Part shown: positions 3,102-6,615 of the stretch, in pieces | How positions within the stretch are numbered: the first letter of the stretch is position 1 | How the letters are laid out: every line of letters starts with the position of its first letter | Source of the DNA: a virus | Lineage: Duplodnaviria > Heunggongvirae > Uroviricota > Caudoviricetes | Virus record (IMG/VR): IMGVR_UViG_2698536476_000004 | Reading direction: 5' to 3' (one strand) | DNA length: 7,637 bases | Translations under genes and position numbers: made by a program | The notes under the pieces: model-generated | Told to the model about the DNA's origin: nothing | Databases searched by the model: none | The model's input: only the letters and a program-made list of their open reading frames with translations

Positions 3102-5039
3102 GTGACTCTTAAACGGGCCTGCTCCCTGCTGACGGTGAAATCCTTCAGTGAGGATGAACGGGTGATCACCGGGATTGCGTCAACGCCTTCTCCGGATCGG
3201 GATGGTGACATCCTGGAGCCGGAGGGCGCGGAGTTTGGCAGTGCGATCCCGTTTCTCTGGCAGCATGACCATTCCCGCCCGGTGGGGCAGTGTACGGTAC
3301 GCCGGGTCAGCGAAGGGCTGGAAATCACGGCAACACTGGTGAAGCCCGTACCGGATATGCCGTCGCAACTGGCTGCCCGGCTGGATGAGGTCTGGGCGGC
3401 CATTAAGACCGGGCTGGTCAGGGGGCTGTCCGTGGGCTTCCGTCCCCATGAATACACCTTTCTGGACGGAGGCGGACTGCATTTTCTGCGCTGGGAACTG
3501 ATGGAGGTGTCTGCCGTCACCGTGCCCGCGAATGCGGAATGCACCATCCGGACCATTAAATCTTACGACCGCCCGTTTTCTGCCGCGTCCGGCAACCGGA
3601 AACCGGTGGTGAAAATCGCATCTTCTGCCGGCGCTGCGGCACAGTCAACAACCGTTTTTCATAAGGAAAAGACCATAATGAATATTGGCGAACAGATTAA
3701 AAGTTTTGAAAACAAGCGTGCAGCGCTGGCAGCCTCCCTTGAGGAGGTCATGACCAAAGCCGCAGAGGAAGGGCGCACGCTGGATGTGGAGGAGGAAGAG
3801 CATTACGACAACACCGCAGCGGAAATCCGTCAGGTGGATGCGCACCTGAAGCGCCTGCGTGAACTGGAAGCCGGTAAGGCCGCCACGGCGCAGCCGGTGA
3901 AACAGGCCGGTAACGGGAATGTGGCCGCGGTGGCTTCTGCGCCGGTGATCCGTGTGGAGCAGAAACTGGATAAGGGGATTGGCTTCGCCCGCTTTGCCAA
4001 ATCGCTGGCTGCGGCTAAAGGCGTCCGATCTGAAGCCCTGGAAGTGGCCCGTCGTCAGTATCCGGATGACAGTCGTCTGCACCATGTTCTGAAATCGGCG
4101 GTGGGGGCAGGAACCACCACGGACCCGCAGTGGGCAGGCAGCCTGTCTGAATACCAGGAATATGCGCAGGACTTTATTGATTACCTGCGTCCGCAGACCA
4201 TTATCGGGCGATTTGGTCAGGGCGGGATCCCTGCACTTCGTCAGGTGCCGTTCAATATCCGCGTGCATGCCCAGGTGTCCGGTGGTGCTGCCGGCTGGGT
4301 GGGGGAGGGTAAGGCCAGACCCCTGACGAAGTTTGATTTTGAATCCATCACCTTCAGTCATGCGAAAGTGTCGGCCATTGCGGTACTGACGGAAGAATTG
4401 ATCCGTTTTTCCAGTCCGGCTGCTGATGCACTGGTCCGTAATGCGCTGGCGGAAGCGGTGGTGGCGCGTCTGGATACAGACTTTGTGGACCCGAAAAAAG
4501 CCGCAGTGGCAGATGTCTCCCCGGCGTCCATCACCCATGATGTGAAGGGCACGGCATCAACCGGTAACCCGGATGCGGATGCAGAGGCGGCGTTTGGACA
4601 GTTTGTGGCAGCAAACCTGCAGCCCACCGGTGCGGTCTGGCTGATGTCCAGCACCAATGCCCTGGCACTGTCCATGCGTAAAAATGCGCTGGGTCAGAAG
4701 GAATACCCGGACATGACCCTGCTGGGTGGCTCCTTCCAGGGGCTGCCGGTGATTGTCTCCCAGTACGTGGGTGACCAGCTGGTGCTGGTGAATGCCCCGG
4801 ATATTTATCTGGCGGATGACGGCGGCGTGGCAGTGGATATGTCCCGTGAAGCGTCACTGGAAATGCAGTCTGAGCCGGGCGGCGACAGCACCACACCGTC
4901 GCCGGTGGAGCTGGTTTCCATGTTCCAGACCGGCAGCGTGGCCATTCGTGCGGAGCGCTGGATCAACTGGCGTCGTCGCCGTACTGCGGCGGTGGCTGTG
5001 ATCACCGGTGTGAACTACGGCAGTGCGTCCGGCGGCTGA
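3102..5039 (+). CDS. Prohead protease (HK97 family) fused in-frame to major capsid protein (HK97 fold, with delta/scaffold domain)
   Basis: 645-aa ORF from GTG 3102, with AGGAGG 5 nt upstream. The N-terminal third or so (GIASTPSPDRDGDILEPEGA ... PFLWQHDHSRPVG) resembles HK97-type prohead proteases. From residue 193 (MNIGEQIKSFENKRAALAASLEEV..., coiled-coil-like delta domain) to the end it resembles HK97-family capsid proteins. No stop codon separates the two parts. Confidence 0.85.
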   Translation: MTLKRACSLLTVKSFSEDERVITGIASTPSPDRDGDILEPEGAEFGSAIPFLWQHDHSRPVGQCTVRRVSEGLEITATLVKPVPDMPSQLAARLDEVWAAIKTGLVRGLSVGFRPHEYTFLDGGGLHFLRWELMEVSAVTVPANAECTIRTIKSYDRPFSAASGNRKPVVKIASSAGAAAQSTTVFHKEKTIMNIGEQIKSFENKRAALAASLEEVMTKAAEEGRTLDVEEEEHYDNTAAEIRQVDAHLKRLRELEAGKAATAQPVKQAGNGNVAAVASAPVIRVEQKLDKGIGFARFAKSLAAAKGVRSEALEVARRQYPDDSRLHHVLKSAVGAGTTTDPQWAGSLSEYQEYAQDFIDYLRPQTIIGRFGQGGIPALRQVPFNIRVHAQVSGGAAGWVGEGKARPLTKFDFESITFSHAKVSAIAVLTEELIRFSSPAADALVRNALAEAVVARLDTDFVDPKKAAVADVSPASITHDVKGTASTGNPDADAEAAFGQFVAANLQPTGAVWLMSSTNALALSMRKNALGQKEYPDMTLLGGSFQGLPVIVSQYVGDQLVLVNAPDIYLADDGGVAVDMSREASLEMQSEPGGDSTTPSPVELVSMFQTGSVAIRAERWINWRRRRTAAVAVITGVNYGSASGG

Positions 5040-5083
5040 GTCTGATGAGGAGGGCGGGAGGCGTGCGCTTCCCGCAGTAACTG

Positions 5084-5305
5084 ATGGCAAAAATCCGATA
5101 TCTGCAGGGTACACATGATGCCCGGCCCGGGGATATCCGGGATGTCGCACAGCCGTGTGCGGAGGTGCTGGTTCGCCTGGGAAAGGCGGAGTACATCACG
5201 GTGCGACGTCCGGCAGGTCAGAAAAAGAAACGTGATGCGGAGCATGGCGAATGTGGAACCTTTTACGGCGAACCCGAAAAAACCAGAAATCAGGACGTGA
5301 CGTAA
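5084..5305 (+). CDS. Hypothetical small protein (73 aa) in the capsid-portal gap; doubtful
   Basis: ORF MAKIRYLQG... fills most of the 211-bp gap and has G/C-biased third positions like its neighbours. It has no recognisable Shine-Dalgarno and overlaps the portal start by 55 bp in another frame. No family recognised. Confidence 0.25.
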   Translation: MAKIRYLQGTHDARPGDIRDVAQPCAEVLVRLGKAEYITVRRPAGQKKKRDAEHGECGTFYGEPEKTRNQDVT

Positions 5306-6615
5306 GAGAGGCGGGCTGGACCAGCCTGTTTCAGGCGGTAGCTGAGCCCTTTGCCGGCGCCTGGCAGCAGGGTGTGAAAGCCGATCCGGAAAGTGTCCTC
5401 TCCTTTCATGCGGTGTTTTCTTGCATTTCGCTGATATCCCAGGATATCGCCAAAATGCGACTGCGCCTGATGCAGACCGATACACAGGGGATCCGCCGTG
5501 AAAAACGGCAGGGGGATATTGCCCGTCTCTGTCGTCGTCCCAATGCACAGCAGAATCGTATCCAGTTTTTTGAACTGTGGCTGAACGCCAAACTGCGTCA
5601 CGGCAATACGGTGGTGCTGAAAATCCGTAACTCCCGGGGGCAGATCAAAGAACTGCGTATTCTGGACTGGAGCCGGGTTGAACCTCTGGTGGCGGATGAC
5701 GGCGAGGTGTTCTACCGCATCACGCCGGACCGGAACTGCGGGATCACGGAGGCGGTGACGGTGCCTGCCAGGGAAGTGATCCACGACCGGTTTAACTGTT
5801 TTTTTCATCCGCTTGTGGGGCTGCCGCCGGTGTATGCTGCCGGGCTGGCGGCCACGCAGGGGCATCATATTCAGGCAAATTCAACGTCTTTTTTCAGAAA
5901 TGGCGGCAGGCCGTCCGGGGTGATTGAGATCCCCGGCAGTATAACGGAAGAAAATGCGAAAAAACTGAAGAGCAACTGGGACAGCGGGTATACCGGCGAA
6001 AATGCGGGGAAAACGGCGATCCTGAGCAACGGGGCGAAATATAACCCCACGACGTTTTCACCGGTGGATGCGCAGACGGTGGAACAACTGAAGATGACGG
6101 CTGAAATTGTCTGTTCGGTGTTCCGTGTCCCGGCCTACAAGATTGGCGTTGGCCAGCCGCCTTCCAGTGACAACGTGGAGGCGCTGGAGCAGCAGTATTA
6201 TTCCCAGTGTCTGCAGACGCTGATTGAGTCCATTGAGCTGTTACTGGATGAGGCGCTGGAAACAGGGGAAAACGAGAGCACGGAGTTTGACGTCACCACG
6301 CTGCTGAGAATGGACAGCGAACGTCGCATGAAAACGCTGGGTGAATCGGTGAAAAATACGCTTCTCACGCCCAATGAGGCCCGTAAACGTGAGAACCTGC
6401 CGCCCCTTGCCGGCGGTGATGCACTGTATCTTCAGCAGCAGAACTACAGTCTGGAGGCGCTGTCCCGTCGTGATGCCCGTGAGGATCCGTTCGCGTCTTC
6501 CGGGAAAACGTCGTCAGGCACACGCCAGGAGGGCGCGTCTGACGGTAATAAGGCCATAAGCGAAACAGAGCGTGATGCGGTGAAGGCGATGTTCAGGGGG
6601 ATACTGCGAAAATGA
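5251..6615 (+). CDS. Portal protein (HK97-like portal family)
   Basis: 454-aa ORF with GGAG 8 nt upstream of the ATG. The central region (NGGRPSGVIEIPGSITEENAKKLKSNWDSGYTGENAGKTAILSNGAKYNPTTFSPVDAQTVEQLKMTAEIVCSVFRVPAYKIG) matches the conserved core of phage portal proteins. The frame opens only at 5236, so ATG 5251 is the first possible start. Confidence 0.85.
   Translation: MWNLLRRTRKNQKSGRDVREAGWTSLFQAVAEPFAGAWQQGVKADPESVLSFHAVFSCISLISQDIAKMRLRLMQTDTQGIRREKRQGDIARLCRRPNAQQNRIQFFELWLNAKLRHGNTVVLKIRNSRGQIKELRILDWSRVEPLVADDGEVFYRITPDRNCGITEAVTVPAREVIHDRFNCFFHPLVGLPPVYAAGLAATQGHHIQANSTSFFRNGGRPSGVIEIPGSITEENAKKLKSNWDSGYTGENAGKTAILSNGAKYNPTTFSPVDAQTVEQLKMTAEIVCSVFRVPAYKIGVGQPPSSDNVEALEQQYYSQCLQTLIESIELLLDEALETGENESTEFDVTTLLRMDSERRMKTLGESVKNTLLTPNEARKRENLPPLAGGDALYLQQQNYSLEALSRRDAREDPFASSGKTSSGTRQEGASDGNKAISETERDAVKAMFRGILRK

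Follow-up and report, generated by a model that had tools for sequence, protein, structure and literature searches.

In the annotated HK97 record, the packaging and head genes run in the order of TerS, TerL, portal, protease and major capsid protein (MCP), and an HNH endonuclease is the usual partner of HK97-type terminases. Protease and scaffold genes nested in one reading frame are represented by lambda C/Nu3 and herpesvirus UL26/UL26.5, and the Gifsy-2 "tripartite capsid gene" reportedly encodes a protease, a scaffold-like middle part and the MCP in a single ORF. The Gifsy-2 protease is presumably ClpP-like, and we take its portal gene to precede the capsid gene, as in lambda. Here, these systems are compared with a stretch of viral DNA of 7,637 nucleotides (the window), whose packaging and head genes all lie on the plus strand and are separated by short gaps or overlap. 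Its genes and hairpins are ordered HNH, TerS, TerL, hairpin, protease-capsid fusion, hairpin, small ORF, portal and accessory gene, so that TerS-TerL-protease/MCP-small ORF-portal replaces the canonical order. Note that connectors come after the accessory gene in this module order. The features are as follows.

161..526, plus strand: HNH endonuclease (Pfam HNH, E 7e-7; PHROG 589, E 4e-44)
817..1380, plus strand: terminase small subunit, TerS (Pfam Terminase_2, E 4.5e-8; PHROG 641, E 2e-68)
1377..3038, plus strand: terminase large subunit, TerL (Pfam TerL_ATPase and TerL_nuclease; PHROG 9, E 6e-146)
3063..3090, plus strand: hairpin hp1, a terminator-like stem-loop (GAACCGC-TCCG-GCGGTTT) with a T-run
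3102..5039, plus strand: protease-capsid fusion, a single ORF of 645 aa with a GTG start
3102..3677, plus strand: prohead protease domain of the fusion (S78, HK97 gp4-like; PF04586) and a linker of ~35 aa
3663..3680, plus strand: internal Shine-Dalgarno (SD)-like AAGGAA (3663-3668), a 9-nt spacer and an in-frame ATG (3678-3680, Met193)
3678..5039, plus strand: major capsid protein part of the fusion (PF05065, PHROG 10), an N-terminal coiled-coil followed by the HK97-fold capsid domain
5054..5075, plus strand: hairpin hp2, a GC-rich stem-loop (GCGGGAGGC-GTGC-GCTTCCCGC) right after the capsid stop codon
5084..5305, plus strand: small conserved ORF between capsid and portal (73 aa; PHROG 829, E 8.5e-39)
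5251..6615, plus strand: intact portal of the HK97 family (454 aa; Pfam Phage_portal PF04860, E 6.5e-81, profile matched end to end)
6596..6615, plus strand: junction of the portal and the next gene, with a G5 run (6596-6600) as SD and an ATG at 6612 that overlaps the portal TGA (ATGA)
6612..7637, plus strand: accessory gene after the portal (PHROG 8767, E 1e-97); coiled coil at the N-terminus, tandem repeats of 54 aa

The window was 95.7-97.8% identical at the nucleotide level, over 100% of its length, to many phage records, among them those of the BP-4795, 2851 and JLK-2012 type, and 99.7% identical to E. coli EH031. At least 80% of it was carried by 1216 of 5426 complete E. coli genomes. 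DNA, gene content and gene order were near-identical across the module, indicating membership of the BP-4795/2851-type (Pankowvirus-like) group, and the annotated order was the same in the published phages and RefSeq prophages that are near-identical to the window. Specifically, the gene order is shared throughout by the Stx/EHEC lambdoid phages BP-4795, 2851 (Pankowvirus pv2851), JLK-2012, YYZ-2008 and 1717. Very probably, then, the window comprises the DNA-packaging and head-assembly genes of a BP-4795/2851-type lambdoid prophage of E. coli, whose capsid-first order was inherited and is fixed in an old and widespread HK97-like siphovirus branch of Proteobacteria. Capsid before portal has long been annotated and is the usual layout in a very common E. 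coli prophage family and its relatives, rather than a recent rearrangement. An Rfam search of the window matched no RNA family.

The earlier note, made from the letters of this DNA, had read 3102..5039 as a protease-capsid fusion and 5251..6615 as a portal, and both assignments held in profile searches. Its placing of the fusion after TerL and ahead of the portal was likewise confirmed by the profile matches and by comparison with annotated HK97. Over 364 aa, the portal matched HK97 gp3 at 28% identity (E 5e-25), indicating an HK97-family portal, and the position of its stop codon was kept across relatives. Ahead of it, the 73-aa ORF, which was absent from the earlier note, comprises a basic tail and a conserved core of ~45 aa, and it shares 55 nt with the start of the portal gene. 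A database search with this ORF gave matches from E. coli only; syntenic homologues were present in most loci examined and in the Burkholderia and Moraxella phages. The HNH gene upstream of TerS was also kept in most relatives.

Profile searches with the fusion ORF found Peptidase_S78 (PF04586, E 2.4e-8) at aa 48-152 and Phage_capsid (PF05065, E 3.1e-14) at aa 386-635. PHROG 617 covered the ORF at full length (aa 1-639 against profile positions 7-626, E 4.5e-261), placing it in this family, and 141 of the 150 top 50%-cluster representatives were full-length fusions. The protease domain was 29% identical to HK97 gp4 (E 4e-9); S110 of the fusion aligned with gp4 S114 and H55 adjoined gp4 H65, residues that we take to be catalytic in the HK97 protease. 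Among 144 aligned representatives, H55 was kept in all and S110 in 143; by sequence, the protease domain has its catalytic Ser/His pair. A Pfam profile search found no ClpP-family match in the fusion at E <= 0.01, so that a protease of the Gifsy-2 type was not detected. Between the two domains, a delta/scaffold-like coiled-coil occupies ~aa 195-262. In an AF2 model of the fusion, the helices at aa 195-222 and 229-262 were the sole confident part; the mean pLDDT was 39 with an alignment of 9 sequences of 73-77% identity, a quality at which the fold is unconfirmed. The profile match and this helical hairpin (aa 195-262) together indicate a PF05065 capsid with an N-terminal scaffold/delta domain. 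A PDB sequence search with the fusion gave solely a marginal capsid match (9d9w, E 0.004). In this arrangement, the protease would enter the procapsid covalently joined to one capsid subunit, and would then excise both the coiled-coil scaffold domain and itself, in the manner of HK97 gp4 acting on the gp5 delta domain.

The order was next compared among 27 species representatives, whose loci span Enterobacterales, Halopseudomonas, Mesorhizobium, Reyranella, Burkholderiaceae, Acidovorax, Candidimonas and Snodgrassella (Gamma-, Beta- and Alphaproteobacteria). Capsid-first order was found in all informative loci, namely those whose contig reached far enough to show the order, and also in the isolated phages Salmonella FSL SP-016, Pseudomonas PAJU2, Burkholderia vB_FKKS2 and Moraxella Mcat6. 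The PAJU2 fusion is annotated as "prohead protease fused capsid protein"; the order holds as well where protease and MCP are separate genes (loci L025, L026 and L028, FKKS2 and Mcat6). In addition, portals at least 41% identical to that of the window belonged to capsid-first loci, and those of 30% identity or less were portal-first wherever checked, that is, in two phages (Mcat17 and NatCom_43819). A sharp gap in portal identity hence coincides with the switch of gene order. The synteny comparison proposed earlier thus returned the same capsid-first order in every relative examined, and the suggestion of a distinct lineage gained support from these loci and from the identity gap. Relative to HK97, the hairpin-bracketed protease-capsid cassette is unchanged, with the portal and the small ORF downstream of it instead of upstream.

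The boundary of protease and capsid contains a candidate internal start. The AAGGAA and start motif was present in 23 of 23 loci despite variable linker residues, and its SD strength (dG -6.2) was similar to those of the TerL and portal starts. Among 120 diverse fusions, the boundary residue was Met in 97 and Val in 13, and a K-E-G...M/V footprint was found in 110; K-E-G, the consensus upstream of the boundary residue, corresponds to AAR-GAR-GGN. Furthermore, unfused capsid proteins begin exactly at this boundary, and MCP-only homologues start at query aa 193-196. A ribosome-binding site and an in-frame start codon inside the ORF, as read from the sequence, are the features of a nested gene of the lambda C/Nu3 kind. 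We tentatively propose, at somewhat less than even chances, that the fusion ORF is nested, so that the internal ATG/GTG start would give free capsid together with less full-length protease-capsid at a translationally set ratio. Given such a start, for which the comparative footprint is strong, the protease:capsid ratio would be tunable. On the other hand, the internal SD is only moderate for E. coli (roughly within the top 10% of in-frame positions), and it could be a relic of once-separate genes or a by-product of the K/E/G-rich linker. In open-access literature we found nothing on capsid-first gene order or on an internal start in S78-capsid fusions; as far as we found, dosage by an internal start in such fusions is apparently undescribed in the literature searched.

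If the nested reading is true, only a minority of the capsid subunits in the shell would carry the protease, and the hairpin-bracketed cassette would be a conserved expression unit around which the portal has changed sides. Such bracketing of the protease-capsid cassette by hairpins is found both here and in HK97. Upstream, hp1 directly precedes the AGGAGG SD and GTG start of the capsid gene; an equivalent was present in nearly all relatives and also ahead of HK97 gp4, and RNAalifold predicted 7 pairs, with compensatory changes in 2. Every relative had a strong hairpin where hp2 lies, often with a T-run behind it. In the window, no T-run lies downstream of hp2, and hp2 is therefore not a canonical intrinsic terminator. 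hp1 and hp2 stand out by position and conservation only.

In a relative with the same order, a single polycistronic transcript spanning the whole block was recovered (PMC8156552). The block in the window would be transcribed in the same way, as a single late polycistronic mRNA. Since the genes are co-directional and tightly packed, and polycistronic in that relative, gene order is unlikely to set timing, and the earlier proposal that the order changes the relative expression order of portal and capsid found no support here. Protein dosage would instead depend on how strongly translation initiates, and perhaps on the hairpins, rather than on gene order. The SD was strong at the capsid start (dG -10.3) and weak at the portal start (dG -5.8), and portal dosage could be reduced by hp2, the conserved hairpin behind the capsid gene. 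Alternatively, the order itself might be functional and not simply a frozen accident: the portal, lying behind hp2, would receive less, or less stable, transcript than the capsid, as would the connector and tail genes, which would help to reach a capsid:portal ratio of ~415:12. The weak portal SD beside the strong capsid SD is in line with this explanation, as is the GC-rich hairpin after the capsid stop, kept in all relatives and followed by a T-run in many; HK97 has the same hairpin after gp5, annotated as a putative terminator. However, hp2 lacks the T-run, late transcription in lambdoid phages is Q-antiterminated, and HK97 attains the same stoichiometry with its portal upstream of the cassette. 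Furthermore, in a promoter and terminator scan of the window, counts were no higher than in shuffled sequence. We consider a functional origin of the order rather unlikely, and inheritance within the lineage remains our preferred reading.

Recent modular shuffling, in which the portal or the capsid cassette came from a different phage than its neighbour and the two have different histories, was also weighed. Lambdoid phages are mosaic, and TerL was clearly swapped in loci L022, L024-L026 and L028, where it was only 24-26% identical to that of the window and capsid and portal were still recognizably related. By these identities, the gene really exchanged in some relatives is TerL; the mosaic joint observed separates TerL from the capsid cassette rather than capsid from portal. 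Over 253 locus pairs, divergence of the capsid closely tracked that of the portal (Spearman 0.89; the pairs are non-independent and represent pairwise distances, not tree reconciliation), so that the separate histories envisaged earlier were unsupported. In addition, E. coli shares one and the same order with Alpha- and Betaproteobacteria, and the boundary of the portal clade is also that of gene order. Shuffling is accordingly very improbable, and these comparisons of sequence point to an old lineage in which the capsid-first order is fixed.

In RefSeq, the nearest genome has its portal labelled "frameshifted". As shown by the junction, the ATGA overlap with an upstream AGAGGA or AGGGGG was found in nearly all relatives (SD dG -9.4 in the window), and nearly all species, like 53 of the 60 phage records sampled, had separate portal and accessory genes. 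In 2851, WGPS6, YYZ-2008, 569R3 and 705R7, the G-run of the junction is longer by one G, which joins portal and accessory gene into a "portal" of 859 aa; the window has the common two-gene form, unlike 2851 and the few others. The RefSeq call thus appears to be an artefact of models built on the minority fused form. A programmed frameshift from the portal into the next gene was rejected, because the next gene has its own conserved ATG and SD and no canonical slippery heptamer was present. Among relatives, the frame of the downstream ORF relative to the portal varies, being mostly -1 and sometimes +1. The accessory gene itself is broken in the window by a 19-bp deletion at ~7047, which is private to the window among BP-4795/2851-type phages. 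Its ORF stops at 7115, and the gene continues in another frame, open from 7049 to 7636 at the window end and matching the phage 2851 sequence. The repeats have a period of 162 nt, with one copy of 143 nt, and a PDB sequence search with the accessory protein gave nothing meaningful. That the order is an artefact or decay product (mis-annotation, mis-assembly or rearrangement in a degraded prophage), as this frameshifting deletion and the RefSeq flag might suggest, has a negligible probability and was ruled out by the strong profile matches of capsid and portal genes, by the same order in more than 1200 complete genomes and in the inducible or isolated phages 2851, BP-4795, FSL SP-016 and PAJU2, and by the conserved junction, at which the "frameshift" is the normal two-gene state.

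Capsid before portal is therefore normal in a large, clinically relevant group of EHEC/Stx prophages and in their proteobacterial relatives, which in practice matters for annotation and comparative genomics: it should not be taken for an anomaly or a sign of mosaicism by readers or tools expecting the HK97 order. If the pseudogene calls of a "frameshifted portal" in E. coli genomes of RefSeq were corrected, a different set of prophages would count as intact. The conserved internal start and the hairpins of the cassette are cheap, testable leads on protease:capsid:portal stoichiometry.

Among known systems, HK97 gp1-gp5 share their families with the window (HNH-associated terminase, PF04860 portal, S78 protease and a PF05065 capsid whose N-terminal domain is a coiled coil), as well as the hairpins that flank the protease and capsid genes on either side. 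TerL was 23% identical to HK97 gp2, and the two capsids were below BLASTP detection (E 0.31). Unlike the window, HK97 has its portal between TerL and protease, encodes protease and capsid by separate genes, and has neither a small ORF nor an accessory gene beside the portal. PAJU2, FSL SP-016, vB_FKKS2 and Mcat6 are closer in layout, with the capsid-first order downstream of TerL and proteins of 37-77% identity to those of the window. PAJU2 and SP-016 carry the protease-capsid fusion, whereas FKKS2 and Mcat6 keep separate genes and have no accessory gene after the portal. All four have a small ORF before the portal, although that of PAJU2 looks non-homologous. The Gifsy-2 tripartite gene (Effantin et al. 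2010, as cited in PMC12315714) is a precedent for a protease delivered in cis, from which the window differs in having an S78 instead of a ClpP-like protease and in having its portal after the capsid gene. If the start at 3678 is used, which we infer from the motif, the window would match the lambda C/Nu3 principle, with a long protease-scaffold-capsid product and a short C-coterminal product in one frame; here, it would be the capsid protein, rather than a separate scaffold, that forms the shared C-terminal part.

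Profile searches assigned the main genes of the window, whose + strand is a tiling of co-directional ORFs. The features discussed here are as follows.

161-526, + strand, HNH endonuclease
817-1380, + strand, small terminase subunit (TerS)
1377-3038, + strand, large terminase subunit (TerL)
3063-3090, + strand, hp1, terminator-like hairpin with a T-run, directly 5' of a strong AGGAGG Shine-Dalgarno (SD) and the GTG start at 3102
3102-5039, + strand, protease-capsid fusion, 645 aa (Peptidase_S78 at aa 48-152, E 2.4e-8; Phage_capsid PF05065 at aa 386-635, E 3.1e-14)
3663-3680, + strand, internal SD-like motif and in-frame ATG at 3678 (Met193), conserved at the protease/capsid boundary
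5054-5075, + strand, hp2, GC-rich hairpin directly 3' of the capsid stop codon
5084-5305, + strand, conserved small ORF of 73 aa between capsid and portal (PHROG 829)
5251-6615, + strand, portal, 454 aa (whole Phage_portal profile matched, E 6.5e-81)
6612-7637, + strand, accessory gene, N-terminal coiled coil, then 54-aa (162-nt) tandem repeats with a P-x-P-x-D-G-x-D motif

Over its whole length, the fusion ORF also matched PHROG 617 (E 4.5e-261). The arrangement described in the earlier note, with protease-capsid ahead of portal and both 3' of TerL, is thus real, as the profile searches uphold both assignments; the annotated HK97 record, checked as canonical comparator, reads TerS, TerL, portal, protease, major capsid protein (MCP). 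A 290-nt non-coding gap (527-816) separates the HNH and TerS genes. This gap may hold a cos (cohesive-end) site, because the linear record of phage Lys8385Vzw seems to start at about window position 588, as inferred from the position of its capsid gene.

The full window shares 95.7-97.8% identity with dozens of published lambdoid phages, Stx-converting and other EHEC ones (2851, JLK-2012, BP-4795, 1717 and YYZ-2008 among them), and 99.7% with a prophage in E. coli EH031; of 5426 complete E. coli genomes, 1216 contain at least 80% of it. The neighbourhoods, where annotated, are those of a lambdoid late region, running from Q antiterminator and tRNAs through stx or other morons and lysis genes to the head module, and then to connector and tail genes of HK97-like type; the genus Pankowvirus has phage 2851 as its type. 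The capsid-before-portal arrangement is already known and of low surprise, since it has been annotated in public genomes for many years (BP-4795, PAJU2 and many EHEC genomes).

We aligned the fusion protein to collect 27 loci from one-genome-per-species contigs, and compared the window proteins with all ORFs of each locus by phmmer. Nineteen loci were from Enterobacterales (57-76% identity), and the others from Halopseudomonas (48%), Mesorhizobium (46%), Reyranella (45%), Acidovorax and Candidimonas (both 37%), a Burkholderiaceae MAG (34%) and two Snodgrassella (32%). The order TerL, protease/MCP, (small ORF), portal was found in every locus long enough. In Acidovorax and Snodgrassella the order is unchanged although protease and MCP are encoded by two overlapping genes, and therefore the capsid-first order is independent of the fusion. 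Among isolated phages, portal identity was at least 41% where the capsid comes first and nowhere else exceeded 30%; Mcat17 and NatCom_43819, checked just below this gap (~29-30%), are both TerL-portal-protease-MCP. The coincidence of gap and order switch fits a single old rearrangement defining a clade. Of the two readings in the earlier note, a distinct lineage is therefore right, the order being constant in all informative loci and in the isolated phages FSL SP-016, PAJU2, vB_FKKS2 and Mcat6. Module shuffling, with different histories of capsid and portal, was unsupported, as pairwise identities across 23 loci correlated most strongly for this pair (Spearman 0.89, versus 0.84 for capsid-TerL and 0.75 for portal-TerL). 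In five loci (L022, L024, L025, L026 and L028), TerL is only 24-26% identical to that of the window while capsid and portal remain at 33-52%, indicating that the exchangeable unit is TerL, not the portal, and that the mosaic joint falls near hp1, 3' of TerL and 5' of the capsid cassette.

A counterpart of hp1 lies at the same position in nearly all relatives, PAJU2 and Mcat6, and that before HK97 gp4 (protease) is annotated as a putative terminator; compensatory changes were seen in 2 of the 7 pairs of hp1. Counterparts of hp2 follow the capsid gene in every relative, many with a T-run, as well as HK97 gp5 (capsid); hp2 of the window is without one. Hairpins being conserved on both sides, the conserved unit is [hairpin]-protease-MCP-[hairpin]. 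The hairpins may attenuate transcription or stabilise the mRNA. The capsid/portal order is unlikely to set expression timing, because the whole block of a relative was recovered as one 6.1-kb polycistronic transcript (PMC8156552), and the change in relative expression order put forward in the earlier note is conjectural.

In its protease part, the fusion shares 29% identity with HK97 gp4 (E 4e-9). The catalytic residues of gp4 are Ser114 and His65: the former is aligned with the Ser of a G-x-S-V-G-F motif in the fusion, and the latter adjoins an invariant His of the fusion. This Ser and this His are kept in 143-144 of 144 aligned representatives. The family is large, with 1170 clusters (50% identity, E <= 1e-30), and 141 of the 150 best-matching ones are full-length fusions. 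Sequence search found no solved structure close to the fusion, and its AF2 model was usable only at aa 195-262, where a confidently modelled helical hairpin is consistent with a delta/scaffold-like domain.

The capsid part starts at the invariant Met193, the residue at which unfused capsid proteins precisely begin. At the DNA level in 23 loci, the linker residues before it vary, yet AAGGAA/GGAGG is always found 7-10 nt upstream (dG -5.3 to -6.2; -12.3 in Halopseudomonas), comparable to the window's TerL and portal starts. Across a set of 120 diverse fusions, Met occupied the boundary in 97, Val in 13 and Leu in 5, and a K-E-G...M/V footprint was present in 110, with the upstream consensus K(-5)-E/K(-4)-G/E(-3), that is AAR-GAR-GGN. 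An xG dipeptide occurred at 40 of 97 boundary Mets versus 114 of 1623 other Mets (binomial p ~4e-21, in which related sequences overstate independence). The conserved motif and ATG suggest a second, capsid-only product, so that the fusion ORF probably yields both full-length protease-capsid and free capsid protein.

The small ORF has a core of ~45 aa (M-x-x-I-R/K-Y-L-x-x-x-H-D...G-D/E...L-V-x-L-G-x-A-E) followed by a basic tail. Its ATG, 8 nt 3' of the hairpin, is without SD (dG +0.7). In E. coli the small ORF and the portal start share 55 nt.

In the nearest genome, RefSeq labels the portal a 'frameshifted' pseudogene of ~860 aa (the junction concerned is at window 6596-6615, and the region in locus L001 is 14252-16835); the label stems from phage 2851, in which one CDS of 859 aa is annotated as portal. 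Compared with 2851, the window has one G fewer in a G-run at 6596-6600 (G5 versus G6). The stop position of the portal ORF is shared by nearly all relatives, in which the next ORF has a conserved ATG (M-N/T-E-R-E-L-S...) overlapping the portal TGA as ATGA, with AGAGGA/AGGGGG upstream; the G-run acts as the SD of the accessory gene. Among 60 phage records sampled, the two genes are separate in 53 and fused in 7. The portal coordinates 5251-6615 proposed earlier are therefore native. FSL SP-016 is annotated with two genes, and in an insect-microbiome transcript a 1359-nt portal is directly followed by a connector gene (PMC8156552). These comparisons show that a 454-aa portal with a separate downstream gene is the normal state, and the 859-aa 'portal' (2851, WGPS6, YYZ-2008 and two others) a minority +1 G fusion. 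Programmed frameshifting from portal into the next ORF was rejected, since the frame offset varies (-1 in most relatives, +1 in some).

In the window the accessory frame is shifted by a 19-bp deletion at ~7047. Full-length homologues carry repeated sub-threshold C-terminal CBM_5_12 matches (4 of 5, E 3e-5 to 9e-4), and the gene is absent from the Burkholderia and Moraxella relatives; its product may serve as a head decoration or as a fibre. The Candidatus Pantoea communis locus (L015, 6474-15912) has a ~1.7 kb insertion between TerL and the capsid gene, and a 1248-aa ORF in which portal and accessory gene are joined in frame, apparently a further fusion of the two that arose independently. As by-products of the analysis, the portal annotation artefact, the internal start footprint and the hairpin-bracketed cassette are modest but open to testing.

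Among named phages, Salmonella FSL SP-016 is laid out exactly as the window is. In Pseudomonas PAJU2, ORF003, annotated 'prohead protease fused capsid protein', is followed by small ORFs and then the portal, whereas in Burkholderia vB_FKKS2 and Moraxella Mcat6 the protease and the MCP are encoded by separate genes, followed by a small ORF and then the portal. In HK97 the portal lies upstream of the hairpin-bracketed protease-MCP unit, whereas in the lineage of the window it lies downstream.
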